NCBI GenBank assembly: GCA_005888745.1
Contig: VBBS01000027.1
Location: 55,045 to 119,044, forward strand
DNA from: Candidatus Bathyarchaeota archaeon
GTDB lineage: Archaea; Thermoproteota; Bathyarchaeia; 40CM-2-53-6
DNA: 64,000 nucleotides
Reading direction: 5' to 3'
The translations under genes and the position numbers were made by a program. Position 1 is the first letter of the stretch. The number at the start of each line of letters is the position of its first letter. Below are positions 41,264 to 61,536 of this stretch, one piece after another. The notes beneath the pieces are model-generated. The model ran no database searches, had not been told where the DNA came from, and saw nothing but the letters and a program-made list of their open reading frames with translations.

Positions 41264-41956
41264 TTGCTCACCGAGTCGCAGTCAGAGATGCTTGGGATAC
41301 TGTTCGGAGATGGGTCGATGTCTGAGAATCACAACTCCGTTCAGATCGTCATAACCGGTCACAAATTCGATGACGTAGAGTACCTAATTGGCCGCGTAGG
41401 TCCGATGTTCGCGGAACTCTTTGAAATGCCCCTCAAGGTACATCTAGTGAAAGATGAAAATACGATGATCCTCTACGCTTACTCCAAACGAATTGCCCTG
41501 ACCCTTCACGAATGGGGAATGCCTTTTGGCCGAAAAAAACTGGCCTGGCTCACACCGCACGTCGCATTGGATGAAGTATCTTTCGTCAGAGGCTTATTCG
41601 ACACAGATGGCTGTGTCTATCGCAAGTATGGCCCTTATTTGCAAATCCAGTTTAAGTTCGCTTCCCTTTCGCTCCTTGAGTACGCGAGGGAGTGTCTGGT
41701 AAGACTCGGCCTGAATCCCACATCGATCAGGTGCGACGATACGAAGTTCAGGTTCTATCTCAGCAGACAAGCCGAGGTAGACCATTTCTTTAGGGTCGTA
41801 GAACCCAAGAACCCAAAGCATCTTAATCGTTTCCAAAATGCTTCTCGGAATCGGTCCTACCGCCCATACACACATCGTCCTGAAGCACTCAGAAGAATTG
41901 GAAACCAACCAAGCCTTATAGGACCAATTCTGTGGAAAACACACTCGGTGGGGTAA
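41264..41956 (+). CDS. LAGLIDADG-family homing endonuclease-like protein
   Basis: Two dodecapeptide motifs, LGILFGDGSM and VRGLFDTDGCV, ~100 aa apart; TTG start; ends 27 nt before the tRNA-like locus. Confidence 0.7.
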   Translation: MLTESQSEMLGILFGDGSMSENHNSVQIVITGHKFDDVEYLIGRVGPMFAELFEMPLKVHLVKDENTMILYAYSKRIALTLHEWGMPFGRKKLAWLTPHVALDEVSFVRGLFDTDGCVYRKYGPYLQIQFKFASLSLLEYARECLVRLGLNPTSIRCDDTKFRFYLSRQAEVDHFFRVVEPKNPKHLNRFQNASRNRSYRPYTHRPEALRRIGNQPSLIGPILWKTHSVG

Positions 41957-43170: not shown

Positions 43171-43665
43171 TTGAGTAGGCCTTCAAAGCAGGTAAGCACT
43201 TCCAAGACCACTCTCTCCAGTCAGATGATGCCTGTGGACGCCAATCCGATGGGAAACGTGCACGGGGGCACAATTCTCAAACTTGTCGATGTCGCCGCCG
43301 GAGTCACGGCCCTGCGACATGCGAGAACTATTGTGGTCACCGCAAGCATCGACCGTATGGACTTTTACCATCCAGTCTATGTCGGCAACCTTCTCAACTT
43401 CAAGGCCTCAGTCAACTACGCTGGAACAACCTCGATGGAAGTCGGAGTAAGGATAGAAGCTGAGGACCTGAAGACTGGTAGAATAACACACACCGGCTCA
43501 TCCTACCTCACCTATGTTGCTATAGATGAGAACGGACAACCAGTCGAGATTCCCGACGTCATCCCGGAGACACTTGACGAAAAACGACGCTGGAGAGAAG
43601 GAAAAAAGCGAAGGGCCGAACGCCTCAAGATCCTACAAGATCGAAGGAGCAAGGGCAAGGCCTAG
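43171..43665 (+). CDS. acyl-CoA thioesterase (hotdog fold)
   Basis: PVDANPMGNVHGGTILKLVD motif. Confidence 0.75.
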   Translation: MSRPSKQVSTSKTTLSSQMMPVDANPMGNVHGGTILKLVDVAAGVTALRHARTIVVTASIDRMDFYHPVYVGNLLNFKASVNYAGTTSMEVGVRIEAEDLKTGRITHTGSSYLTYVAIDENGQPVEIPDVIPETLDEKRRWREGKKRRAERLKILQDRRSKGKA

Positions 43666-43704
43666 GGTCGACAAAGAACGAAAGTCGCAATTGTAGGGTT
43701 CGGC

Positions 43705-44562
43705 ATGATGGGCCGGCAGATAGCCCAAGTATTCGCCCAAAATGGCCACGAGGTCGAGGCCACGGATGAGGATCAGCAAGCACTGAAGGCGGGGCTCAAC
43801 GAAATAGCAGACGGGCCCTACGGATTGCACGCGGCTGTTTCAAAAGGAAAACTGGCTGCAGAGCAAGCTCACAGGACTCTAGCAGCCATCAAGACAAGAC
43901 CCGAGCTAGCGGATGTTTGCAAGAACTCGACTCTTGTGATCGAGGCAGCCTTCGAGGAGCTGCAACTCAAACAGAATCTGTTTCACAGAATTGAATCTGC
44001 TGCGCCACCAACTGCGATCATAGCATCAAACACTTCAACCTTGAGCCTGGACAAGATCACCCAAAGAATCTCAAGGAAGGACAGAACGATTGGAATGCAC
44101 TTCTTTAATCCAGCCCAGCTCACAAAACTCGTCGAGATCGTCCGAGGAACGTCGACATCACCTGAAACACTAGAGAAAGCGTCCCAAATCGTCCGGGAGA
44201 TCGGTAAGACCCCTATCCTCGCCCAAGATGAGCCTGGTTTCATCGCCAACCGTCTCGGACTCACCCTCTACATGGAGGCTTCAAGACTGCTAGAGGATCG
44301 TGTCGCAAGTCTCTCTGACATCGACACGTGCATGAGACTCGGATACAACCATCCAATGGGACCCTTCGAACTAGCCGACTTCGTCGGACTTGACACCAGA
44401 CTTCGGAATCTAGAATCACTCTACAAGTCAACGAATGAAAGTAAATGGATACCACCTCAGATTCTAAGAGAGATGGTCCAACAAGGATACCTCGGCGACC
44501 CTGCTAGAAAGAAGACGAGCAAGGGCGGATACTACGAGTATCTCCGGATAAAGCGAGGATAA
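43705..44562 (+). CDS. hbd: 3-hydroxyacyl-CoA (3-hydroxybutyryl-CoA) dehydrogenase; likely starts ~43678
   Basis: NAD-binding plus C-terminal dimerisation domain; the beta1 strand of the Rossmann fold, KVAIVGFG, lies upstream of the first ATG, in frame after the thioesterase TAG. Confidence 0.85.
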   Translation: MMGRQIAQVFAQNGHEVEATDEDQQALKAGLNEIADGPYGLHAAVSKGKLAAEQAHRTLAAIKTRPELADVCKNSTLVIEAAFEELQLKQNLFHRIESAAPPTAIIASNTSTLSLDKITQRISRKDRTIGMHFFNPAQLTKLVEIVRGTSTSPETLEKASQIVREIGKTPILAQDEPGFIANRLGLTLYMEASRLLEDRVASLSDIDTCMRLGYNHPMGPFELADFVGLDTRLRNLESLYKSTNESKWIPPQILREMVQQGYLGDPARKKTSKGGYYEYLRIKRG

Positions 44563-45019
44563 GAAAATCCCAACCCTTTATACAGAACATAAGCCGTGTC
44601 AACTCCACTGGTTGTTATTTGGTGTGTTAACTTCGTTCGTCTCCAGCCGTTACCTTCGAAGTATGACTCTTCACATGTTAGGCGGTCGTCGCATGAACCT
44701 GTCACGTTGGGATGAGGGGGATGACTCCGATCAGGTGACGGGTCAGAAATGGGATAGCCGGTTGGCTGGCCACCGTAAAATCCTTGCTTGGCAATCGGCC
44801 AAGTTACCACGCTATGGGCGTGAGGGGGCGGTTGAGGTTCGACCGTTCCCTGCCAAAAAGAGACTACATGTCTCTGAGGCGCAAGGGCTCGCAGGTGAAG
44901 CAGTGAAGAGGAACCCGCCGACGACGGTAATCCTCCGAGCAGATGAGAGCAAGTCTAGTCCCCCAGCAACGGAAGACTCGACAGAACCCAGAACACAACC
45001 CACAAACCATCGATGATGA

Positions 45020-45793
45020 TTGCTGTACACACACATTCTAGTTGAGACTGAGCCGCCTATCGGAATCATCCGACTGAACCGTCCGAAAGCTCTCAACGCC
45101 CTCAACTTCGAACTTATCCAAGAAACAGTGGAGGCACTCGAAGGCTTCGACAAAGACGACAGGATCAAAGCGACGATCTTGACAGGGGGAGACGACGCCT
45201 TCTCTGCTGGAGCAGACATCAAGGAACTAGCGGAAGCGACTCCTGTCACCTTGATCGAGGAGAACAAGTTCGCCCTCTGGGATCGCTTGAAGAAGATCGC
45301 AAAGCCGATCATAGGAGCGGTCAGCGGCTACATCTACGGAGGAGGATGCGAACTGGCAATGAATTGCGATATCATCATTGCATCCGAGACCGCACGATTC
45401 GCACAGCCTGAAATCAACATCGGAATAATGCCCGGAGCTGGCGGGACACAGCGTCTCACAAGAACCATCGGAAAGTATAGGACAATGGAGATGGTTCTAA
45501 CCGGACAACCCATGACCGCGCGAGAGATGGAGAAACACGGTCTCGTCAACAGAATCGTCCCCGTCGAGGCCTACTTCGATGAGGCACGCAAACTCGCCAT
45601 GCAAATCGCCCAGAAAGCCCCCATAGCCACACGGCTAGCGAAAGAGGCGGTGCTGAAAGCTCTCGACACACCGCTCGAGGAAGGGCTACAATTCGAGAGG
45701 AAGAATTTCTACCTCCTCTTCTCAACAGAGGACATGAAAGAGGGAATGAAAGCCTTCACGGAAAAACGGCCCCCCAGATTCAAAGGACGATAG
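45020..45793 (+). CDS. enoyl-CoA hydratase (crotonase family)
   Basis: Crotonase fold with catalytic Glu pair (GGGCELAMNCD...E). Confidence 0.85.
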   Translation: MLYTHILVETEPPIGIIRLNRPKALNALNFELIQETVEALEGFDKDDRIKATILTGGDDAFSAGADIKELAEATPVTLIEENKFALWDRLKKIAKPIIGAVSGYIYGGGCELAMNCDIIIASETARFAQPEINIGIMPGAGGTQRLTRTIGKYRTMEMVLTGQPMTAREMEKHGLVNRIVPVEAYFDEARKLAMQIAQKAPIATRLAKEAVLKALDTPLEEGLQFERKNFYLLFSTEDMKEGMKAFTEKRPPRFKGR

Positions 45794-45796
45794 TTC

Positions 45797-46591
45797 TTGG
45801 CACCTGAAACACTCATCGTCGAAGAACACGACCACATCACAAAGATCACACTGAACAGGCCGAGCGCCCTAAATGCGATAAACGACAAGATGGGCGAAGA
45901 ACTACTCGCGACTCTCAAAGAGACAGAGAAGAGCGACACTACCAGATGTCTTGTCATAACAGGGGCAGGAAGAGCTTTCTCAGCAGGAGAAGACATATCA
46001 GCTCTGAAAGACCGCTCTGGGACAGGAGACCATCCCTCACTCGGGGATCATCTCCGGAAGAAGTATCATCCAATCATAACCCGGATCCGAAACATCGAGA
46101 AACCAGTAATCGCCCGTCTGAACGGCATAGCAGCCGGAAGCGGGGCAAGCTTGGCCCTCGCCTGCGACATCCGAGTAGCCTCAGAGGAGGCGGGCCTCAA
46201 ACAGGCCTTCATCGGGGTAGGCTTGATACCGGATTCTGGAAGCAGCTACTTCCTAACACGAATGATCGGTCCCGGAAGGGCCCTCGAACTCATCATGACA
46301 GGAAAAACAATACCAGCGAAAGAAGCTGAACAACTTGGCCTCATCAACAAAGTCGTCCCCGCCGCCGAGCTTGACAAGCATACAGACGAGCTTGCCCATC
46401 AGCTCGCAACCGGCCCGACCAAAGCACTAGGACTCTCCAAGCGAATCGTGAACAAAGTCATAAGCCTCGAACTTCCAGAAGCCCTGGAGTATGAAGCCTA
46501 CAACCAGGACATCGCTGGACGAACCAGCGACCATCTAGAAGCCGTCAAAGCCTTTCTAGAAAAACGACAGCCGAAGTTCTTAGGGAAATGA
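45797..46591 (+). CDS. enoyl-CoA hydratase/isomerase (second crotonase paralogue)
   Basis: Crotonase-fold motifs; 4 nt after the previous gene. Confidence 0.8.
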   Translation: MAPETLIVEEHDHITKITLNRPSALNAINDKMGEELLATLKETEKSDTTRCLVITGAGRAFSAGEDISALKDRSGTGDHPSLGDHLRKKYHPIITRIRNIEKPVIARLNGIAAGSGASLALACDIRVASEEAGLKQAFIGVGLIPDSGSSYFLTRMIGPGRALELIMTGKTIPAKEAEQLGLINKVVPAAELDKHTDELAHQLATGPTKALGLSKRIVNKVISLELPEALEYEAYNQDIAGRTSDHLEAVKAFLEKRQPKFLGK

Positions 46592-46658: not shown

Positions 46659-47660
46659 GTGCCGGGAAGGAACAAGAAACGGCCGAAATTGGACCTCAAC
46701 ATCTTCCCCGGAAACTGGACTGTCACGAATGACCGGATGTTCAAGGCCTTCGACCTGTCCTTCGCCCAGAACTGGAACCCTGCTACTTTTCCTTGGGATG
46801 AACTTGACCAGAAGAATTTCGACTCGAAGGAGAGAATAGCGCAAGCCTACTGGATGTCCAAACTGGCTCTCTTCGAGAAATCTGGAATTGGAGCCTTCGG
46901 CTTTGGGGCCGTAAGAGCCGCAGAACTGAACATGGAAGACCCCACGAAGAAGATGCTTGCCTCCATCACATACGATGAATGCCGGCATGACGAAGTCTGC
47001 CGAAGAGCCTGCGACAAGCTCTGTCCCAACTGGCCATACGGATACAAGCCACAATCAGATTTCGAATCAAGGGCCCTCCGAAACATCAAGGCACTCTACG
47101 ATGACGGCAGACGCTACTGGGAAGGATTCCTAAAGGCGTGGGAATATTTGCCGCCTGAGATTCTGTTCGCTGGCTTCTTTTTTGCGGAAATAGGCGCAGA
47201 AACGATCTTCAACGCGATGCGCCAGACCAGCAAACTCGGAATCTACCAACAAACCTTCCGAAATATTACACGAGACGAGACTCGCCATCTCGTTGCGACA
47301 ATGGCCCTGCTCCGGGCCATGGCCGAGAAGTTCTCGGAGGAACAGAAGATGACTATTACCCGGCAGATGAAGCAGGGCTTCATCTTTCTCTCACCCCTCC
47401 TCTACCAGCACAAGCCCGAGTTCTGGCATCTCCCCGCAGACTTTGACAAGGTCGACCAGGAGATGGAGGAAGCGGCCAGGGACGCGGGACTGGGAGTGCT
47501 CACCCTTGAAGAGAAGGTGAAGTTCTGGAAGGAAGCGATTGAGAAGAAACGGTCCGAGATAGAAGAGATGGGAATCAAGGTACCCGCCATCCCAGAGCTG
47601 GGAGTTGAGGGCGAAGAGGTTCAGGTTAAGAAGAACGAGACTATAGCCACGAGCTTCTAG
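46659..47660 (+). CDS. ferritin-like diiron-carboxylate protein (PaaA/BoxB-like acyl-CoA oxygenase family)
   Basis: Two ExxH motifs (DECRH, DETRH) ~95 aa apart, each preceded by a conserved Glu, matching PaaA DEAGH/EESFH. Confidence 0.55.
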   Translation: MPGRNKKRPKLDLNIFPGNWTVTNDRMFKAFDLSFAQNWNPATFPWDELDQKNFDSKERIAQAYWMSKLALFEKSGIGAFGFGAVRAAELNMEDPTKKMLASITYDECRHDEVCRRACDKLCPNWPYGYKPQSDFESRALRNIKALYDDGRRYWEGFLKAWEYLPPEILFAGFFFAEIGAETIFNAMRQTSKLGIYQQTFRNITRDETRHLVATMALLRAMAEKFSEEQKMTITRQMKQGFIFLSPLLYQHKPEFWHLPADFDKVDQEMEEAARDAGLGVLTLEEKVKFWKEAIEKKRSEIEEMGIKVPAIPELGVEGEEVQVKKNETIATSF

Positions 47661-47667
47661 GAAGTGG

Positions 47668-47985
47668 TTGAAGATCACGAAGATCATAGTCCTGTTCGGA
47701 CAACCGAAAGACCCCGAACTATTCGATGAGCAATACTGGAAAGACCATGTTCCAATAGCGAAGGCGATGCCAGGTTTGAAGAAATACACAGTTCACAAGA
47801 TCGTTGGGGCACCACGAGGAGAACCGGCATACTACCAGGTTGTCGAACTGGAATTCGAGAATATGGACAGCCTGAAGAAAGCATTGGAAAGCCCGGCCGG
47901 ACGCGAATCAGGCCGGCACGGCGTAAAGATTGCTACTGGTGGCATAACTTTCCTTTACGCGGAATCAAGAGAAGCGATGCCGTAG
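47668..47985 (+). CDS. EthD/Dabb-like dimeric alpha+beta barrel protein
   Basis: 105 aa, EthD-like pattern (KYTVHKIVG...YYQVVELEFENMDS). Confidence 0.5.
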   Translation: MKITKIIVLFGQPKDPELFDEQYWKDHVPIAKAMPGLKKYTVHKIVGAPRGEPAYYQVVELEFENMDSLKKALESPAGRESGRHGVKIATGGITFLYAESREAMP

Positions 47986-48389
47986 AACAACAACAGTCTA
48001 GCCCGGTTCCATCTGACATATTCCTCGGAAAACGTTCTTCTAATCAGACCCGTCAGTTCTAGGACAGGAGCGGGGAAGTCTTAGGCCGCATCGGAATCGT
48101 TGGAGTTGGACATTCAAAGTTCGGAAAAAGGAGCGACGCCTCCCTCCGAGAGCTAGCATTCGAAGCGTACAGTTCCGCCCTAGATGACGCCGACATCGAC
48201 TCTTCAAAAATAGACGGTTCAATAGTTTGCTCCGCCACTCACTACGACAAGCAACGATCGCCTGCAGGTGTTGTTGCGGAATATCTCGGACTCAATCCCC
48301 AACCAACATTCAACGTTGAGGCAGCCTGCGCCTCCAGCGCTGTTGGCCTTCGGACCGCGTGGGCGCTTGTCTCATCAAAACTTCATGAT

Positions 48390-49235
48390 GTGGTGGCCGT
48401 TGTGGGGGTGCAGAAGATGACCGAACTCTCCTCGGAGGAGATCCAGGAGCTCATGGGCAGAGCAGGGGACGTCATGTGGGAGTCTCCCTTCGGAACAACA
48501 ATGCCCGCATACTACGCCTCCTATGCTAACGCCCACATGGCCAAGTACGGAACTACAGAGGAACAAATGGCGCTCGTGTCGGTGAAGAACCGAAAATACG
48601 GATCCAAGAATCCTAACGCCATGTTTCAAAAACCCATCCAATTGGAAGAGGTCCTAAAATCGCGAATGGTATCTTATCCTCTAAAACTATACGATTGCTG
48701 CGCCAATGCTGACGGGGCGGCATGTCTGCTCATTACTAGTGCCGAAAAAGCAAAGAAAATTTCTGATAGACCCGTATGGATCTCCGGGCTTGGCCTGGCT
48801 TCGAGTCCCATGTCGCTTGCTGGAAGAAAAGGTCCATTGACGAGTTTCGATGCCACAAGAAATGCGGCGAGAACGGCATACGAAATGGCCAATATCAAAC
48901 CACACGACGTACATGTGGCGGAGGTTCATGACTCTTTCTCGGTAACAGAAATCATCAATTATGAAGACCTCGGATTCGCACGACCTGGAAGGGGTGCTAA
49001 GCTTCTGGAAAACCAAGGCACGGAGCTCGGCGGGAGAATCCCCGTCAACATCGACGGAGGCTTGATTTCCAAAGGCCATCCAGTCGGAGCCACAGGCGCG
49101 TCCCAGATCTTCGCATTGGTCAAACAACTACGGGGGGAAGCGGGTAGCGTTCAGGTCGACGGCGCTAAGATTGGTCTCGCACAGAACATAGGGGGAATAG
49201 GAATGTACTGCTCCGTTACGATCTTGCGCTCATGA
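48390..49235 (+). CDS. thiolase (SCP-x/archaeal acetyl-CoA C-acyltransferase type); the true gene most likely begins ~48078
   Basis: The track ORF lacks ~105 N-terminal residues; the same frame upstream encodes GRIGIVGVGHSKFGK...EAACASSAVGL (catalytic Cys) with no stop and no ATG/GTG/TTG. Confidence 0.85.
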   Translation: MVAVVGVQKMTELSSEEIQELMGRAGDVMWESPFGTTMPAYYASYANAHMAKYGTTEEQMALVSVKNRKYGSKNPNAMFQKPIQLEEVLKSRMVSYPLKLYDCCANADGAACLLITSAEKAKKISDRPVWISGLGLASSPMSLAGRKGPLTSFDATRNAARTAYEMANIKPHDVHVAEVHDSFSVTEIINYEDLGFARPGRGAKLLENQGTELGGRIPVNIDGGLISKGHPVGATGASQIFALVKQLRGEAGSVQVDGAKIGLAQNIGGIGMYCSVTILRS

Positions 49236-49281: not shown

Positions 49282-50208
49282 TTGCAGGTGGACATTCAAG
49301 AGTTGACCCCCATTCAAAGCTTCGGCAGAAGAATTCGAGCCTATGATAAAGCCACACGCCTCGCAAAGGAAGGTCGCCCTGTCACTGAAATCTCGAAAGA
49401 GACGGGAACGCCTGACGCTACCATCAGGGGATGGCTCGTAAACGGTCGAAAACCTTGGACCCGCTGCGAACTCTTCAAACCAACGTACTCTGATCAATTA
49501 ACATATGTTATCGGTGTTTACATGGGAGACGGCTCGATTTCCCGATGGAGAAATCGTTTTTTACTGCGATTAGATGTCAAAGACAAAGAATTCGCCGATA
49601 AGTTTTCTTCAACATGCGCACATGTTCTGGGTAGGAAACCATATTCTGTGAGGCATGTCAGGGATAGGGACACATACGAGACTATCATTTCAAACGCGTC
49701 TTTCTGCAAGTTCCTCAACCGAGGCCTCACCCACCTGGATCGGTATGTACGGGAGCATCCCTCTGGCTTTGTTAGAGGTTTAGCTGATAGCGATGAGTGC
49801 CCCACTGTGACAACAACAAAAAAGCGGGGCAAACCCTGGTTCTTCGTCCAAGTTGTAGTAGCAACATCCAAGAGCATACGCTTACTGAGCTATACTCGGA
49901 CGATCCTGAGGGAATGCCTCGGACTCAAAGCGACGCTAGTGTACAAAGGCAAGCCAAGACCCAGTGTGTTCAAGAACAAGTTGCTCCGTTCAAGAAAGAG
50001 GGTCTTTGACCTTAGGATATCGCGCTTTGGTGACGTGAAACGATTCTCCCGGGTTGTTGGTTTCGAATTGGCTCGGAAACAAGAGAAGCTTGCCGCTGCT
50101 ATCTTCGTCCGTGAAGGATTTGGTTCTGGTCAGGATGCGGTGAAAGAGTGGACCCGTCGCTGGGAGCATGGCACCACTGAGTGGATTCTCAAGAAAGGAG
50201 TGGACTAG
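49282..50208 (+). CDS. HTH + LAGLIDADG homing endonuclease-like protein
   Basis: N-terminal HTH-like region (ISKETGTPDATIRGWL), then motifs IGVYMGDGSI and VRGLADSDEC; lies between thiolase and its DUF35 partner and overlaps the DUF35 start. Confidence 0.65.
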   Translation: MQVDIQELTPIQSFGRRIRAYDKATRLAKEGRPVTEISKETGTPDATIRGWLVNGRKPWTRCELFKPTYSDQLTYVIGVYMGDGSISRWRNRFLLRLDVKDKEFADKFSSTCAHVLGRKPYSVRHVRDRDTYETIISNASFCKFLNRGLTHLDRYVREHPSGFVRGLADSDECPTVTTTKKRGKPWFFVQVVVATSKSIRLLSYTRTILRECLGLKATLVYKGKPRPSVFKNKLLRSRKRVFDLRISRFGDVKRFSRVVGFELARKQEKLAAAIFVREGFGSGQDAVKEWTRRWEHGTTEWILKKGVD

Positions 50209-50620
50209 GCAATTGGGTTTTGAAAAGTTCGGGAGATTTGGTTATGTCTCCCAGACCAAGATCAACCCCTTGTTATCCTATCTGGAAAAGGGGCAGATTG
50301 CCGCGACCAAGTGCAAGAAGTGCGGGAGAACGTACTTTCCACCAAGAGCCGAGTGCCTGGACTGCCGCCACAGTACGATAGAATGGGTTGTAGTGGACGG
50401 GAGGAGCAAACTGATCACATTCACCCAGGTTTTCTTCGCACCACCCGCCTTTCAGCACGAAACCCCGTACATGCTAGGACTTGCGGAACTCACGAATGGG
50501 CTTCGCGTATTCGCGCCTGTCAGTCCTGCAGTGGAAAAGGAGCAACTCAAACCGGGCGTCGAGCTGACCTTGAAGGTTGCAAAAGGCTCACGTGACAACT
50601 TGTACTACTGGCTCGAATGA
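50168..50620 (+). CDS. DUF35 OB-fold/zinc-ribbon protein (thiolase partner)
   Basis: CKKCGRTYFPPRAECLDC ribbon plus an OB-fold. Confidence 0.75.
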   Translation: MAPLSGFSRKEWTRQLGFEKFGRFGYVSQTKINPLLSYLEKGQIAATKCKKCGRTYFPPRAECLDCRHSTIEWVVVDGRSKLITFTQVFFAPPAFQHETPYMLGLAELTNGLRVFAPVSPAVEKEQLKPGVELTLKVAKGSRDNLYYWLE

Positions 50621-54336: not shown

Positions 54337-55353
54337 CTAAATCTTTGGAGGCGGTAGCGGCCTTCGCACCTTGATCGCCAAAAGAATTAGGAAAAGCGCC
54401 ACACCGAAGATCGTCAATAATACGATTGCTGAGACGACAGGAGCAGAAGAAGTACCACCCGCATTCAGTGTTACGGTGCTGACCGGAGCGACTGAAGCAT
54501 CTTCCGACCATGTTCCCTGGTCTTGACCCTGGTAGAGAACGTGCGCTGAATAGGGTCCGATTGGAATATCGCCGAGTTGAACTGTTCCCTGACTGTCGGT
54601 CGTGAAAGTTCTGCTTGTTGCGTTGGCGAAGGTGATTGTTACCGATGCGCCCTGAATCGGACTGTTCAGCTTGTCGACAACTTTGACGGACGCCGGGTAC
54701 GCGCTCACCCCGACAATGGCAGAGGCTGAACCCAAGGCGAGGTCAAGGGGTACTGGGGCAGGCAGAGCTCCTTGGTAGCCTTCCCAGGTCGCCGAAGTAA
54801 CCGTCCAAGAAGTCGCGGCCAGCCACTGGCCAGAATAGGACGAGGTTGTAACACTCGAACCTGCACTCGACAATACGACAGACGTTGGACTCGGAACGAG
54901 TGATTGCCCTGCAGCATCTTTGAAGGTCAACGTATACTGGAACTGCTTATCGAACTTGGCGGTGAAGGGTCCTCCATCCAATGATCCTGTGTAATTGTAG
55001 AGCATGATCGGAGTCTGCATCATCAGAGTGGGGGTCCACTGCAAACTGGAACGGACCCATTCGTTCCATACATAACGTGCTCCTGAGGACGCTGACAAGG
55101 TTGTGTTCAGAACGGTAAGAGTATGTCGACTATTGTTTGCGAATGAGAACGTGTGTGGTAGAGGATAAACTAAGCCAGTATTGTTGTCGAGCTCAACGTA
55201 CACTGTTCCATCCGCACCAGGCACGGTTGTGTCTGCTTTGAGAAGACAGCTTGTGATGCACCCGCTGGTCGCATGAACATCTGCCAGGAAGAGCGGGACA
55301 ACCATGATTGAAAGTGCCAGAATCAGCAATGAGGCACGAGCCGTCTTCCTCAA
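54337..55353 (-). CDS. cell-surface (probably glycosylated) protein with C-terminal TM anchor
   Basis: Signal peptide, Thr/Ser-rich beta-type body with many N-x-S/T sequons, C-terminal hydrophobic helix + KVRRP. Confidence 0.5.
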   Translation of the reverse strand: MRKTARASLLILALSIMVVPLFLADVHATSGCITSCLLKADTTVPGADGTVYVELDNNTGLVYPLPHTFSFANNSRHTLTVLNTTLSASSGARYVWNEWVRSSLQWTPTLMMQTPIMLYNYTGSLDGGPFTAKFDKQFQYTLTFKDAAGQSLVPSPTSVVLSSAGSSVTTSSYSGQWLAATSWTVTSATWEGYQGALPAPVPLDLALGSASAIVGVSAYPASVKVVDKLNSPIQGASVTITFANATSRTFTTDSQGTVQLGDIPIGPYSAHVLYQGQDQGTWSEDASVAPVSTVTLNAGGTSSAPVVSAIVLLTIFGVALFLILLAIKVRRPLPPPKI

Positions 55354-57126: not shown

Positions 57127-58431
57127 GTGAGTGCGAAGATCGCGCTGGAGTCGGCCGGCTGGGTCGACATTGATCCCAGCAAGAGAGGGCGTCTCCTAAC
57201 TAAGCTCACAACTCTGGTCAGGGAGAATTCAGAGCAGCTGGCAAAGCTTGAAACCATGAGTGAGGGGAAGACTCTCCGAGAGTCTAAGGGTGATGTTGCC
57301 TGGGCGGCCAGGGCGTTCGAGTACTGGGCAGGACTGGCGGACAAGGTTGAAGGAGAAACCATACCTGTTCCGCCGAGACGTCTGAACTACACTCTTCGTG
57401 AGCCGCTAGGCGTAACGGTCCATATTGTTCCTTGGAATTATCCGATCGCGCTTGCTGCTAGAAGTTTGGCACCGGCAATTGCAGCAGGGAATACTGTTGT
57501 CGTGAAACCGTCTGAGATTACTCCTCTTACAGCGATTATGCTGGGAGATCTAGCGCTTAAGGCCGGCATCCCCAAAGGTGTTATCAACGTTGTAACTGGA
57601 TCAGGTGCTGAAGTAGGCGAAGCACTTGTGTCGGACCCGCGAGTGGACGGGATAGTTTTCACAGGGTCCGCTGAGACAGGAACGCAGGTGATGGAGTCAG
57701 CCGCGAAAAATGTTACAAGGGTACTTCTGGAGTTAGGCGGTAAGAACCCGCATATTGTCTTCCCTGACGCCGACTTGGCGAAGGCCGCTAAGAGCGTGAA
57801 GGAAGGCATTTTCACCAATGCTGGACAAATGTGCTGGGCCGGATCTAGGGCATTCATTCACGAGAGCATATACGATGATTTCGTAAAGGACCTCGTCGCC
57901 AAGACCCGAGCGATAAAGGTCGGGCCTGGAAGAGATGATACCAGCGAGATGGGACCCTTAGCCTCAAAGGCTCGGCAAGACGTGGTTCTCGGGTTTGTCA
58001 AGGACGGCCTCGAAGAAGGGGCAAGTCTTCTCTGCGGGGGGAAGAAACCATCTGACCCAGGACTGCAGAAGGGAAATTTCGTCGAGCCCACCATTTTCGA
58101 GAACGTCAACGGGAAGATGAAAATCGGGTGCGACGAGATTTTCGGACCTGTTCTGGGCCTTACCCAGTTCAAGACTCTCGACGAGGTTGTTGCTATGGCC
58201 AATGAGACAGATTATGGACTATACGGGGGAGTCTGGACGAGCAATTTGAAAGTCGCTCATGAACTCGCTGTTCGTCTCCAGGTCGGTGGACTAGCCGTGA
58301 ACGAGTATTTGGTGACCTTTCCGCAGACCCCGTTCGGCGGCTACAAGGACAGCGGAATAGGACATGAAAACGGCATACGCTCGTTAGAATTCTACACACG
58401 AACCAAGAATGTCTCGATAAACCTTTCCTAG
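57127..58431 (+). CDS. NAD(P)+-dependent aldehyde dehydrogenase (N-terminal ~35 residues encoded in another frame: frameshifted or pseudogene)
   Basis: ALDH catalytic region with Cys in GQMCWAGSR, Glu in LELGGKNP and Gly-rich NAD motif; an ATG at ~57026 opens MLIGGEWKDSANGAVSSVLDPSNN..., which is the ALDH N-terminus, in the +1-shifted frame ending in TGA at ~57128. Confidence 0.7.
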   Translation: MSAKIALESAGWVDIDPSKRGRLLTKLTTLVRENSEQLAKLETMSEGKTLRESKGDVAWAARAFEYWAGLADKVEGETIPVPPRRLNYTLREPLGVTVHIVPWNYPIALAARSLAPAIAAGNTVVVKPSEITPLTAIMLGDLALKAGIPKGVINVVTGSGAEVGEALVSDPRVDGIVFTGSAETGTQVMESAAKNVTRVLLELGGKNPHIVFPDADLAKAAKSVKEGIFTNAGQMCWAGSRAFIHESIYDDFVKDLVAKTRAIKVGPGRDDTSEMGPLASKARQDVVLGFVKDGLEEGASLLCGGKKPSDPGLQKGNFVEPTIFENVNGKMKIGCDEIFGPVLGLTQFKTLDEVVAMANETDYGLYGGVWTSNLKVAHELAVRLQVGGLAVNEYLVTFPQTPFGGYKDSGIGHENGIRSLEFYTRTKNVSINLS

Positions 58432-58767
58432 ACACTATCGCCAGCTCCCTACAATTATCCTCTGAAGAGGCATGCGGAGAGCATTGCCACGAAAAATAGC
58501 CCATTTTCAGACCCCTGATATCGAGTCTGGGGCCCTTCTCTACACTGACTAGGAAAATCGTTCTTGACACCGCATTTAGAACCGCAGGAACCATCATGTC
58601 GTTTAGGCCAAATGCCAAGCTCTGAATCGCGAGACTCGCCCGGAATCAGTGCCAGACACGGAGCGACCTCTCAGGAGCGTGTCTTACACAGAGCATCTCG
58701 TGACGCCAGAGTGTTTGAGAGCGCGAAATCCACTGCCGAGCTTGGGAACAGTGGAGGTTCTTTCGAA

Positions 58768-59694
58768 CTAGGTAAGCTCGTCCAGCAACGGCGTAATATC
58801 ACGGTTGTAAATATCCTGCTCGACAAAGGGCTTTTCTTTCAGGGCGGGCATTCGAAGAGCCAGCTGGTCCTCGAAGGTAGGAACCTCCATCTTGAAGAAA
58901 ACCCCGATCGGTATCTTGTCGCCCCACTCGAAAGACTTCACCAGGGCATTTCCCTTCTTTGTGTTAACCTCGTCCGTCGTGGGATCGGCAACCGTACCAT
59001 TGTACCCTGAATCCTCCAGCTTGTAGAGCCTCGGTGCCTTGACCGGAAGATCTTCGCCACCATACCATTCTTTCGTGTTGATGTCGTTATAGGTCGGGCA
59101 TGTTTGCAGAACATCTACGAACGCGCTTCCCCGATGTTCTATTGCCGCTCGAAGGGTTTGCTTCAAGTGGCGAACGTCAAGAGCATAACTCCGCGCAACG
59201 AACGTATAGCCCGAAGCGACTGCCATAGCGATCGGATTCACACGCTCAATGATCGCGGGGGCAGGCATCGATTTCGTTTTCACACCCTTCGGCAGGGTCG
59301 GAGATGCCTGACCTTTTGTCAAGCCGTAGACTCCATTATCGTAGAGCACGTATGTGAAATCCAGGTTCCTTCGACCAGTATTGACGAAGTGGCCTGCTCC
59401 TATTCCCAGTCCGTCTCCGTCGCCACCAACAGCGACAACGGTCAGTCCTGGGTTAGAAAGACGGGCACCAGTAGCGATTGGAAGGACACGGCCATGGAGA
59501 GTATGGAACCCGTACGCGTTAACAAAATGAGGTGTCTTGCCTGAGCATCCGATTCCCGAGAAGATCGCGACCCTGTGGGGTTCAAGCTGCATTTCTAGAA
59601 GGGTCATCTGAATCGCGTTGACGATTCCGAAGTCTCCGCAACCAGGGCACCAGTCGTTGTGAACCTGTGTCCGGTAGGTCTTTAGCTCAAGCAT
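58768..59694 (-). CDS. korB: 2-oxoacid:ferredoxin oxidoreductase beta subunit (TPP-binding)
   Basis: WCPGCGDFGI and TPP-binding GDG...N motifs. Confidence 0.85.
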   Translation of the reverse strand: MLELKTYRTQVHNDWCPGCGDFGIVNAIQMTLLEMQLEPHRVAIFSGIGCSGKTPHFVNAYGFHTLHGRVLPIATGARLSNPGLTVVAVGGDGDGLGIGAGHFVNTGRRNLDFTYVLYDNGVYGLTKGQASPTLPKGVKTKSMPAPAIIERVNPIAMAVASGYTFVARSYALDVRHLKQTLRAAIEHRGSAFVDVLQTCPTYNDINTKEWYGGEDLPVKAPRLYKLEDSGYNGTVADPTTDEVNTKKGNALVKSFEWGDKIPIGVFFKMEVPTFEDQLALRMPALKEKPFVEQDIYNRDITPLLDELT

Positions 59695-60121
59695 GAGATA
59701 CGGTTACCTCTTTGATTCCGTTCTTTATTATGTCTTTGACACCCTCGTAGATTTCGTTCTGGGAAAACGGTCTTCCGTCGAACTTTACAATAGTATTGTC
59801 CATTGCAATACCGGTTTTCTCACGGATCAACCCTGCCATCTGTGCGGAGTAATTGTTTTCGATCGCGATCTTCCGCCGGGCCGAACCAAGTGCCTGCTGA
59901 ACGAAGCTTGTTGGGAACGGGCTAACGTATCGCACCTGTAGAAAGTTTGTTTCTATCCCGTCGCTCTTGAGGTCTTCCATGCCGTCGAGTATCGCTCCCT
60001 TCGATGACCCCCAGCCAACGAGTGTAATCAGAGCCGATGTTGGTCCGTGCAAGGTTGCCTTCTTTGAGTCCGGTATTACTTGTCCAGCAAGCTCGATCTT
60101 TCTCATTCTCTTCCTCATCAT
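59687..60121 (-). CDS. korA: 2-oxoacid:ferredoxin oxidoreductase alpha subunit, C-terminal domain III fragment (split from the upstream ORF by a frameshift)
   Basis: ALITLVGWGSSKG... domain III; in frame upstream reads TGDEHDEYGHITEAPDIRIK, which belongs to alpha. Confidence 0.75.
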   Translation of the reverse strand: MMRKRMRKIELAGQVIPDSKKATLHGPTSALITLVGWGSSKGAILDGMEDLKSDGIETNFLQVRYVSPFPTSFVQQALGSARRKIAIENNYSAQMAGLIREKTGIAMDNTIVKFDGRPFSQNEIYEGVKDIIKNGIKEVTVSHA

Positions 60122-61536
60122 CTTGATCCGGATATCCGGCGCCTCCGTGATATGACCATACTCGTCATGCTCATCTCCAGTTGTCCAGAAGATCCCCCCT
60201 TTCTGACCAGGAATTGCTCGGGGGGAAATTCCCAGTTCTGTCCAACGGTAGCGTCGATGCTTATGGCGAGATCTGATTCTCGAACCAAGTCTCCCCGATC
60301 GACCTTCAGGTTGTCGCCGTTGAAAGGAGGAATATCTTGGTAGGTGCTCGCCAGGAACTTGTCGGTCAGAAGTATGACGGGCACTTGGTAGCGTTCCGCG
60401 TAGTTGAACGCGTCGAACGTGTCGTAGTAAGTTTCGACCACATCTCCGGGTGCAATAATTATCCGAGGAAATTCTCCATGGGCAGCGTGAAGAGCAAATC
60501 TTAGGTCTGCTTGCTCCGTCCGAGTCGGCAGCCCAGTTGCAGGACCTGCCCGCTGATATAGCACGACAACTGGTCCAGGGGCTTCAGTTATCCCGGCCCA
60601 CCCCAAGCCTTCGGCCATAAGAGAAAAGCCCGGTCCAGATGTAGAGGTAGAAGATCTGAGACCAGCGTGAGCCGCACCGGTGGCCATGTTGATCGCGGAA
60701 ATCTCGTCCTCTGCTTGTACGACTATCATATTGTAGTCCTTCTGGTGGGACTCCAAGTACTCGCTCTCGTCCGTTGCTGGTGTAATGGGATAGTAGGTTT
60801 GGAATCCACATCCGGCCTTGAGTTTCGCGATAGCCACGGCTTGTACACCTCTGATCATCATTCGCTTTCCAGACAGCGGTTGCTTTCGCAGCTTTATCGG
60901 AAACGCATCTTCGCCGAAACCCGCCTTTGCATAATCGTATCCGCGTTTCGCGGCGCTGACGTTTAGGTCGCCGAGAGCTGCCTTGCGTCCGGTGAACCCT
61001 TCTCTAATGGCCTCGGTTGCGAGGTCAAAGTCGTAATCGGCGAGGCCAAGGGAAGCCCCTAGAGCAATCGTGTTGACCATAACCTGGTACTTGCTCAGTT
61101 CCTTGTCCTTTCCAAACTCCTTCAGCGCCTCGACAAGGAGATCCATGTAGGGGATCGGAAAGAGTTTGATATCATCACGCCCGAAAGAGTCAGGTGACAG
61201 GTTCAAGCTGCGATCGTAGATTATTCCACCTCCAGGGCTGACCTCGTGTCTATGCCCTCGATGGGTAGGACGAAGCTTGTTCATGTCGCCGAAGATTGTT
61301 TCCCGGTCGAGGGCTACGAGTAAGTCTACCCAGTCCACGTGGGATCTGGGCGCCTTTGACTCTACTCTGAGCCTGTAGTAGCTATGTTCGCCCTTGATGT
61401 TGGAGTGATACTCGATGTTGGCAAATATGTGAAGTCCTCCACGAATGCATGCTTTTGCAAAGTTCTCTGCAACCGAGTTGATCCCGCTGCCTTGAGGACC
61501 GCCTATCATCCAGGTGAAACTGTTGGTTACTGTCAA
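60118..61536 (-). CDS. korA: 2-oxoacid:ferredoxin oxidoreductase alpha subunit (fused gamma+alpha type), N-terminal 472 aa
   Basis: Gamma-like N-domain MIGGPQGSGINS..., alpha core; last ~12 codons (ISRRRRISGSR) look out of frame after a C6 tract at 60193-60198. Confidence 0.8.
   Translation of the reverse strand: MTVTNSFTWMIGGPQGSGINSVAENFAKACIRGGLHIFANIEYHSNIKGEHSYYRLRVESKAPRSHVDWVDLLVALDRETIFGDMNKLRPTHRGHRHEVSPGGGIIYDRSLNLSPDSFGRDDIKLFPIPYMDLLVEALKEFGKDKELSKYQVMVNTIALGASLGLADYDFDLATEAIREGFTGRKAALGDLNVSAAKRGYDYAKAGFGEDAFPIKLRKQPLSGKRMMIRGVQAVAIAKLKAGCGFQTYYPITPATDESEYLESHQKDYNMIVVQAEDEISAINMATGAAHAGLRSSTSTSGPGFSLMAEGLGWAGITEAPGPVVVLYQRAGPATGLPTRTEQADLRFALHAAHGEFPRIIIAPGDVVETYYDTFDAFNYAERYQVPVILLTDKFLASTYQDIPPFNGDNLKVDRGDLVRESDLAISIDATVGQNWEFPPEQFLVRKGGSSGQLEMSMTSMVISRRRRISGSR

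Follow-up and report, generated by a model that had tools for sequence, protein, structure and literature searches.

The 64-kb window analyzed here (the whole 64,000-nucleotide stretch, positions 55,045 to 119,044 of contig VBBS01000027.1 from a Candidatus Bathyarchaeota archaeon) carries at 46659–47660, on the + strand, an open reading frame (ORF) of 333 residues predicted from its ligand pattern and R2lox/AurF-like family to encode a dimetal, probably diiron, oxygenase. It starts with GTG, and homologs begin at the same site (MPG/VPG/LPG). The ORF belongs to a row of genes between 43.1 and 50.7 kb, all co-directional on the + strand: a hot-dog (4HBT) acyl-coenzyme A (acyl-CoA) thioesterase (43171–43665; PF03061, 70.7 bits), a 3-hydroxyacyl-CoA dehydrogenase of the short hbd type (~43672–44562; PF02737 and PF00725; PRK05808, 276 bits), an enoyl-CoA hydratase, PaaF-like or generic (45020–45793; PF00378, 273 bits), a PaaG-like crotonase-fold isomerase (45797–46591; best NCBIfam model TIGR02280, PaaG), the oxygenase itself, a 105-residue EthD-family protein (47668–47985; PF07110 and TIGR02118), an archaeal/SCPx-type thiolase (~48063–49235; PRK06064, 465.8 bits against a cutoff of 420), and a DUF35 protein with a ChsH2-like zinc ribbon and OB fold (50168–50620; PF12172 and PF01796). 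This order, from the thioesterase and hbd through the two crotonases to the thiolase and DUF35, is that read in an initial annotation of the DNA letters, which had likened the 333-residue protein to PaaA, the catalytic subunit of phenylacetyl-CoA epoxidase, and to BoxB.

The protein contains two copies of the pattern [D/E]-x(28–37)-DExRH (E73-x32-DECRH110 and E177-x28-DETRH210), the signature of the soluble diiron-carboxylate oxygenase/desaturase superfamily on a four-helix bundle. The ligand codons lie on the + strand at 46875–46877 (E73), 46977–46979 (E107), 46986–46988 (H110), 47187–47189 (E177), 47277–47279 (E207), and 47286–47288 (H210). The E...ExxH...E...ExxH ligand set (DECRH/DETRH) noted in the initial annotation is near-invariant across 38 archaeal homologs (≥50% identity), in which E73, D106, H110, E177, D206, E207, R209, and H210 never vary. 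Loss of ligands on alignment, which that annotation had raised as a possible objection, is confined to the replacement of E107 by Gln in two of the 38, and the ligand pattern is still kept in relatives at 20–36% identity. An AlphaFold model computed from the 38-sequence family alignment is all-helical (pLDDT 88, pTM 0.88), with the ligand helices (56–89, 94–121, 174–190, and 194–222) in the expected order. Basic residues are conserved at K74, K97, K98, R115, R116, and R152.

Exactly four cysteines are present (108, 114, 118, and 122), all on the second ligand helix (window 46980–47024) with the spacing C-x5-C-x3-C-x3-C. All four are invariant in the archaeal clade only; Cys114 alone is common to a bacterial sister clade, where the counterparts of the other three are Gln, Ile, and Leu. 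Cys114 (codon 46998–47000) lies four residues after H110 and is kept in the bacterial sister family as well as in the majority of distant relatives. This H+4 position is occupied by Cys151 in the hydroxylase of methane monooxygenase, by the radical tyrosine in R2, and by a Phe in R2c and R2lox. An iron–sulfur cluster on the four cysteines was considered and is not claimed.

The target has no Pfam or NCBIfam match above threshold, and a PDB search from the single sequence returned noise only. The sub-threshold matches are to Rubrerythrin (PF02915, 17.8 bits), R2 (PF00268, 13.9 bits against a cutoff of 33.6), and Ferritin_2. The top Foldseek match is R2lox (E 2e-5), and a family profile searched against PDB sequences recovers chains of R2lox at E 1e-6 to 1e-4, R2loxII of Sulfolobus among them, with neither PaaA nor BoxB appearing at E≤10. 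The ranking figures of the structural matches are 17.8 for aldehyde-deformylating oxygenase, 17.7 for R2lox, ~17 for ribonucleotide reductase R2, 16.0 for the methane monooxygenase hydroxylase, 15.7 for PaaC, 15.4 for PaaA, 14.8 for AurF, 14.1 for BoxB, and 14.0 for acyl-ACP desaturase, with storage ferritins, Dps, and symerythrin at the bottom (~10–11). A non-catalytic ferritin or rubrerythrin, the placement that the initial annotation had set against its own proposal, is not what these comparisons indicate: Foldseek and the profile search place the protein with R2lox and the ferritins rank lowest. Neither a rubrerythrin profile match with a rubredoxin domain nor the compact ~170-residue build of a storage ferritin was found. 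The nearest solved relatives, at 13–16% identity, are R2lox, AurF/VlmB-like oxidases, and ribonucleotide reductase R2, and the protein combines the R2 fold and the E / ExxH / E / ExxH ligands with detectable sequence similarity to this group.

The suggested resemblance to PaaA and BoxB does not extend to family membership. PF05138 (PaaA_PaaC) gives no match even at E≤10 for the target, two archaeal/bacterial relatives, and a Variovorax member, while genuine PaaA and PaaC in locus L087 do match it. Alignment of the 38-sequence profile with two PaaA sequences by hhalign gives a probability of 3.1% (E 0.014; the PaaA profile is shallow), no NCBIfam model matches, and none of the marks of BoxB (its models, a length of ~480 residues, a BoxA partner) was found. 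Two closer assignments were also rejected. In ribonucleotide reductase R2 the position of Cys114 is that of the radical tyrosine, and the PF00268 score is far below its cutoff. R2lox is described as having a Tyr–Val ether cross-link, a Mn/Fe cofactor, and a bound long-chain fatty acid (PMC9314684). For R2lox proper, an invariant G76 aligns with the cross-link Val72, and there is no Tyr at 165–177 (PPEILFAGFFFAE); the family consensus has Ser five residues before E177. The target is a catalytic-type protein of the R2/R2lox/AurF branch of the ferritin-like superfamily, outside the PaaA/PaaC and BoxB families. It represents an unnamed family, distinct from all named ones and new within the soluble diiron oxygenases; literature searches found no description of the family, nor of an alternative phenylacetyl-CoA oxygenase.

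The family is small: when 1.84 billion representative proteins were searched exhaustively with its profile, only 182 representatives were recovered at E≤1e-3. No family member has a Pfam family above threshold, and members are labeled “hypothetical,” “rubrerythrin” (many, by the Joint Genome Institute, JGI) or, automatically, “AurF.” The close clade is wholly archaeal and spans 80 species-level genomes, all of them metagenome-assembled genomes (MAGs), from soil and peat Bathyarchaeia, Nitrososphaeria (not named isolates), Conexivisphaerales, Ca. Pelearchaeum, and Ca. Caldarchaeum (Caldarchaeales). The sister clade, of ~341 residues, belongs to Alpha-, Beta-, and Gammaproteobacteria and Campylobacterota, isolates among them (Arcobacter sp. 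LA11, Sulfurospirillum sp. 1612, Marinospirillum, Denitromonas, Tepidiphilus, Hydrogenophilus, Rhodobium, Vitreoscilla, Variovorax). The alignment of one clade with the other spans the entire protein (hhalign 100%, E 1.3e-65, 322 columns, ~31% identity), and both have the ligands, the Cys at H+4, the motifs GRRYW and FW-LP-DF, and a C-terminal PAIPE-G-G segment that is well packed. Genes for heme-copper oxidases are present in many carriers. The oxygenase gene of the window is 98% identical to that of Bathyarchaeota MAGs from Angelo meadow soil, organisms that, by inference from proteogenomics, degrade peptides and aromatic amino acids aerobically (PMC5103831).

The archaeal neighborhoods were compared by calling ORFs in 86 archaeal loci and the window and clustering them without prior labels; 77 loci hold the gene. 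A crotonase pair lies within 2.5 kb of it in 35 of the 77, in lineages down to 55% identity, and does so in four different arrangements. The first is the co-directional operon of the window, with EthD in 22 loci. In peat Bathyarchaeia, an SDR gene and the target are convergent with a unit of ECH, membrane peptide, ECH, and radical-SAM gene; the small ORF between these crotonases was examined as a PaaB-like subunit and ruled out, being a hydrophobic membrane peptide. Nitrososphaeria-related genomes have a divergent GNAT-ECH-ECH-thiolase unit, in which the thiolase has 3-oxoadipyl-CoA thiolase as its best match, below cutoff, and the fourth arrangement is a simpler convergent form. Each arrangement tested has one true hydratase and one protein with PaaG as its best model; the other archaeal PaaG-like partners score 253 and 267 bits against the TIGR02280 cutoff of 345.

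The crotonases of the window follow the same division of labor. The first scores 332 bits with PRK05862 and 309 bits with PaaF, both under cutoff, and in the alignment it keeps both catalytic glutamates. The second reaches 251 bits with TIGR02280, below cutoff, yet this is its best model. It has lost both hydratase glutamates and has the motif QAF..GLIPDSG, whereas true hydratases in the same alignment retain GGGCE and QPE. Its identity to the PaaG-like ECH genes of two bacterial paa clusters is 40–43%, with the PD motif in common; one of these, the PaaG of Sulfurospirillaceae, itself scores 338.5 against the cutoff of 345. The Asp of the GL-PD-SG motif is presumably the catalytic Asp of PaaG.

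The EthD protein that the initial annotation placed after the diiron ORF passes both curated cutoffs (PF07110, 30.0 bits against 22; TIGR02118, 69 bits against 30.5) and belongs to the EthD family. It starts 7 bp past the oxygenase stop codon, lies directly 3′ of the oxygenase gene in 22 loci of soil Bathyarchaeota, and is probably translationally coupled to it. It has no cysteine and so cannot hold an iron–sulfur cluster. An effector or coupling role is proposed for it because an EthD protein is indispensable in vitro for the EthAB P450 monooxygenase (PMC7934444).

The bacterial sister genes were examined in 13 loci from ~9 lineages. In all ten proteobacterial loci a Fer2-FAD-NAD reductase, with BenC and MmoC as best models, lies immediately 3′ of the sister gene, and the pair is therefore marked as a two-component oxygenase; one actinobacterial relative lacks both a reductase and any related context. 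The oxygenase–reductase pair occurs in paa or paa-like clusters in four independent lineages. A 21-kb cluster of Sulfurospirillaceae combines the pair with an aldehyde dehydrogenase, PaaF, PaaG, a PaaH-type dehydrogenase, PaaX, a third crotonase, and an ABC transporter; PaaI and 3-oxoadipyl-CoA thiolase (PaaJ) score above cutoff, and PaaK reaches 623 against 646. The Variovorax cluster holds PaaN (624.7 against a cutoff of 578.75), a PaaK-like ligase, a CoA transferase, a MaoC domain that matches PaaZ in the C-terminal hydratase domain only, ECH, DUF35 with an SCPx thiolase, the pair, and an ABC transporter. It looks like an undescribed arylacetate pathway in a genus known for auxin and aromatic-acid catabolism. 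On the Variovorax replicons L095 and L097, the cluster also has a GlcD-like FAD oxidase, Lrp, and an indolepyruvate:ferredoxin oxidoreductase. In Variovorax paradoxus the pair corresponds to QRF63067 and QRF62526.

Within the 21–25 kb examined, paaABCDE is absent from both the Sulfurospirillaceae and the Variovorax clusters. Both encode the steps that process an epoxide/oxepin and no known enzyme that makes this intermediate; the pair is the sole oxygenase candidate in each. A 2026 survey records paa contexts that lack the core epoxidase subunits and names no substitute (PMC13186573).

Together these features lead us to propose, with confidence that stops midway, that the target is an oxygenase of one subunit whose substrate is an arylacetyl-CoA, for example phenylacetyl-CoA. 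Four helices would supply E73, E107/H110, E177, and E207/H210 to a cytoplasmic carboxylate-bridged dimetal site, most likely diiron. The reduced metal pair would bind O2 and put an oxygen atom into the ring of the CoA-bound arylacetyl substrate, so that one subunit would stand in for the PaaABC(D)E ring epoxidase, whether by epoxidation or by hydroxylation. The product would pass to the PaaG-like isomerase, the hydratase, and the 3-hydroxyacyl-CoA dehydrogenase, and the thiolase with DUF35 would then shorten the opened chain; the thioesterase would rescue CoA. The substrate could be made from arylpyruvates, directly by arylpyruvate:ferredoxin oxidoreductases; by extension from what is established for aromatic amino-acid catabolism in archaea, this would account for the lack of a ligase. 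The cysteine-free EthD may serve as an effector or an electron-transfer helper. Electrons in the archaea would come from an unlinked ferredoxin system, a donor that is needed because they lack the dedicated reductase found in the bacterial relatives. An acyl-CoA-directed oxygenase with a possibly aromatic substrate had been suggested in the initial annotation, and this part gains from the sister family in paa clusters and from the PaaG-like second crotonase; the desaturase offered there as an equal option becomes a rival and not the best reading.

The proposal shares much with PaaABC(D)E beyond its probable job. In both cases the operons contain a PaaG-type isomerase, hydratase, 3-hydroxyacyl-CoA dehydrogenase, thiolase, and thioesterase; in two lineages the sister genes occupy the place where paaABCDE would be expected, and the target is similar in size to PaaA. 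In contrast to the epoxidase, the target has no PaaB, PaaC, or PaaD partner and no reductase adjoins the archaeal gene, and the reductase of the sister clade has an N-terminal Fer2 domain (MmoC/BenC type) and not the PaaE layout. The absence of the PaaB, PaaC, PaaD, and PaaE partners, noted in the initial annotation for the neighborhood, extends beyond it: neither the window nor any of the 86 archaeal loci gives a tblastn hit to PaaA–E, PaaK, PaaX, PaaI, or the reductase of the sister family. The nearby reductase partner for which that annotation recommended a search is likewise lacking among the scanned ORFs of the window and in the archaeal loci. In the window, a Pfam scan of the ~40 longer ORFs (short ORFs unscanned) detects no reductase, acyl-CoA dehydrogenase, or CoA ligase.

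Several observations weigh against an arylacetyl-CoA oxygenase, and our confidence is held at this level because the archaeal electron donor and the ring-opening enzyme are the main gaps. No Fer2-FAD-NAD reductase, PaaK, PaaX, or ring-opening enzyme of the PaaZ/PaaN type lies within 10 kb of the gene in any archaeal locus, and the neighboring aldehyde dehydrogenase, tried as PaaN/PacL, is of a generic betaine-aldehyde type and weakly similar to the paa-cluster enzyme. The thioesterase, hbd, and thiolase of the window are generic β-oxidation types, not PaaI, PaaH, and PaaJ; the thioesterase has no NCBIfam match at 1e-20 and no tblastn similarity to PaaI, and is thus not of the PaaI type. The PaaG-like proteins, at 251–267 bits against 345, could be ordinary Δ3,Δ2-enoyl-CoA isomerases. 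In ~31 Nitrososphaerales loci the target stands between a terminal-oxidase operon and an opposite-strand MFS transporter followed by CysRS, with no crotonase nearby. Among the bacteria, coexistence and not simple replacement is seen in Marinospirillum, where the pair lies between paaK and paaABCDE, and on the Vitreoscilla plasmid pVF1, where it lies just after paaZ in a cluster with paaABCDE. The pair stands alone, with no catabolic context, in Denitromonas, Rhodobium, and Neptuniibacter, and in Tepidiphilus it is found beside a thiolase and a NUDIX gene, outside a paa-type cluster. Finally, at ~31% identity between the archaeal and bacterial clades, the substrate may differ between them.

A more far-reaching form of the proposal, which we offer tentatively, is that the role of PaaABCDE has been taken over by a single-subunit diiron epoxidase family in aerobic TACK archaea (soil Bathyarchaeia, non-nitrifying Nitrososphaeria, Caldarchaeales) and in some bacteria (Sulfurospirillaceae, Variovorax), providing them with a CoA-dependent pathway that attacks the aromatic ring. 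In the archaea, which have no dedicated reductase, EthD would then act as the effector and C108/C114/C118/C122 would form a built-in redox or metal site for electron entry.

The alternative that survives best, which we nevertheless regard as doubtful, is an O2-dependent desaturase or hydroxylase acting on aliphatic acyl-CoA intermediates of β-oxidation in place of acyl-CoA dehydrogenase. It would introduce a 2,3- or 3,4-double bond or a 3-hydroxyl group, with the PaaG-like protein as Δ3,Δ2-enoyl-CoA isomerase and the hydratase, hbd, and thiolase acting next. The operon does encode every β-oxidation step but the acyl-CoA dehydrogenase, for which no gene was found among the scanned ORFs of the window; the Variovorax cluster also has no annotated one, and the hbd, thioesterase, and thiolase are of generic fatty-acid types. 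True paa clusters, however, need no desaturation and yet host the sister gene near PaaK, PaaX, PaaN, and a MaoC domain that matches the C-terminal domain of PaaZ, and in Rhodobium only 8 kb separate the family member from an ordinary acyl-CoA dehydrogenase. As structural matches desaturases rank below oxygenases and oxidases, and it would be wasteful to consume reductant and O2 at a step from which reducing power is normally gained. Were it true, the O2-dependent bypass of acyl-CoA dehydrogenase would also be new.

It is less probable still that the target is an R2lox-type oxidase (Mn/Fe or Fe/Fe) that holds and oxidizes a long-chain (hydroxy) fatty acid or alkane, its link to the operon being one of general lipid catabolism. 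R2lox (PDB entries 4HR0 and 7QBK) is the best sequence relative and has the identical ligand set E, ExxH, E, ExxH. Both are R2-type helical folds of ~300–330 residues including N-terminal helices, with Glu as first ligand; E73, E107, H110, E207, and H210 align with E69, E102, H105, E202, and H205 of Geobacillus R2lox. R2lox occurs in Crenarchaeota too. It co-purifies with C16/C18 hydroxy fatty acids, its function still being unassigned (PMC9314684), and alkane hydroxylation by GkR2loxI has been reported in one paper (PMC10867098). Set against this are the missing residues of the Tyr–Val cross-link (G76 at Val72; no Tyr in 165–177), matches that cover mostly the N-terminal half at 13–16% identity, and a PF00268 score of 13.9 against 33.6. 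The target further differs in having Cys and not Phe at H+4 and a conserved, well-packed C-terminal VPAIPE-G-G segment. Its family neighbors enzymes of CoA thioesters, and these neighborhoods indicate CoA thioesters and aromatic acids, not free lipids. The bacterial sister clade has a dedicated reductase; R2lox proteins are not known to have one.

A role outside acyl-CoA catabolism, in aerobic respiration or oxidative stress (a rubrerythrin-like peroxidase, iron handling, or an oxygenase in quinone, heme, or lipid biosynthesis), with the crotonase neighborhood as lineage-specific synteny, would agree with the JGI “rubrerythrin” labels, the sub-threshold PF02915 score of 17.8 bits, the position of the gene directly after a COX2-COX1/3-COX4-cupredoxin operon on the same strand in ~31 Nitrososphaerales loci, and four bacterial lineages with the pair outside any paa-type cluster, but is very improbable, given that the oxidase operon is inverted or separated in L055, L058, and L064 with other synteny kept, which points to inherited order and not co-transcription, that the crotonase pairing recurs in four arrangements across classes, and that CoA-ligase and thiolase clusters recur in bacteria. 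The terminal-oxidase linkage is read as inherited gene order because inversion or displacement of the oxidase operon, seen in several loci, leaves the remaining synteny intact. The full order in Nitrososphaerales (L004, L040–L086) is pyrophosphatase, COX2-COX1/3-COX4-cupredoxin, the diiron gene, the MFS transporter, CysRS, and a glycoside-hydrolase-like gene.

An oxygenase of the proposed kind can be set beside other known systems. Some sister members score 25.5 bits with the AurF/CmlI/VlmB family (PF11583; threshold 29.6), whose enzymes are likewise single-subunit and of similar length. In AurF-type enzymes a further histidine serves as a ligand, the substrates are arylamines of antibiotic pathways, and no dedicated reductase is known; in contrast, the target has a 4-carboxylate/2-His ligand set and a catabolic context. 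With the bacterial multicomponent monooxygenases of methane, toluene, and phenol, the family shares the double DExRH and the Cys at the position of Cys151; the sister family shares an MmoC-like NADH reductase with an N-terminal [2Fe-2S] domain, and EthD as a possible small cofactor-less helper recalls their effector proteins. However, those enzymes have α subunits of ~500 residues in an α2β2γ2 assembly, compared with a single 333-residue protein here, and PF02332 is matched below threshold by one homolog only (19.2 against 24.4 bits). In BoxAB, a diiron oxygenase acts on an aromatic CoA thioester and is followed by the crotonase-fold BoxC; in contrast, the target locus has neither a BoxA-type Fe–S flavoprotein nor BoxC.

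The oxygenase of the Ipf system for ibuprofen and other arylacetates, which works on the CoA ester, is a Rieske dioxygenase, not a diiron protein. The Variovorax clusters follow its logic of ligase, oxygenase, and thiolase/DUF35, and the oxygenase-EthD-thiolase-DUF35 run of the window follows that of oxygenase to thiolase/DUF35; an ipfDE-encoded thiolase is cited in PMC9195938. DUF35 is the usual partner of this thiolase type and lies 3′ of the thiolase in 25 related loci. The pairing is less telling in the window, since archaeal thiolases are routinely paired with DUF35.

The operon of the window shows some irregularities of its own. The conserved N-terminus of hbd (KVAIVGFGMMG) precedes the first canonical start codon, at 43705, and in the thiolase, whose frame stays open from 48063 on, no canonical start codon lies ahead of the conserved N-terminus (RIGIVGVGHSKFG). 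These N-termini, in the regions 43666–43704 and 48063–48100, lie upstream of any in-frame ATG, GTG, or TTG that comes after the preceding stop codon, and imply non-canonical start codons (e.g., ATT, ATC) or assembly errors. An insert of ~400 bp (44590–44988) separates hbd from the first crotonase; relatives lack it, and their two genes abut. It is bounded by an imperfect 13-nt direct repeat (CAGAACATAAGCC at 44583–44595 and CAGAACACAACCC at 44989–45001), is single-copy in the window, and has no Rfam match and no convincing ORF. The thiolase is split from DUF35 by a free-standing LAGLIDADG endonuclease gene (49282–50208) that overlaps the DUF35 start; the close relatives L008, L010, and L011 lack the gene at this site, and L013, L015, and L018 have it. 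A further LAGLIDADG ORF lies 8 kb upstream (41264–41956), and similar ORFs adjoin the terminal-oxidase operons of the Nitrososphaerales loci L050, L054, L061, L080, and L081.

The region 57127–61536, 6–10 kb downstream of the operon, encodes an aldehyde dehydrogenase of generic type (+ strand) and both subunits of a 2-oxoacid:ferredoxin oxidoreductase (− strand); many sibling MAGs have this type of aldehyde dehydrogenase directly next to the DUF35 gene. The remaining genes of the window are ordinary for archaea and serve housekeeping (tRNA synthetases of the Phe and Trp/Tyr types, family-B DNA polymerase, SMC, NAD synthase), and neither the Rfam nor the tRNA scan gave a hit in the window.

Among archaea, the 2026 survey recorded the phenylacetate pathway in haloarchaea only (PMC13186573). 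Only two diiron systems, PaaABCDE and BoxAB, are known for the aerobic attack on aromatic CoA thioesters. If the target is indeed an arylacetyl-CoA oxygenase, paa-type clusters without the epoxidase would be accounted for by a third and much simpler family of oxygenases, and the soluble diiron oxygenases would gain a compact one-subunit scaffold. With R2lox as the nearest relative of the family, knowledge of its substrate could also give a lead on R2lox function, which has been open since the discovery of R2lox. For abundant uncultured archaea of soil and peat, the same oxygenase would provide a testable route for the breakdown of aromatic amino acids.

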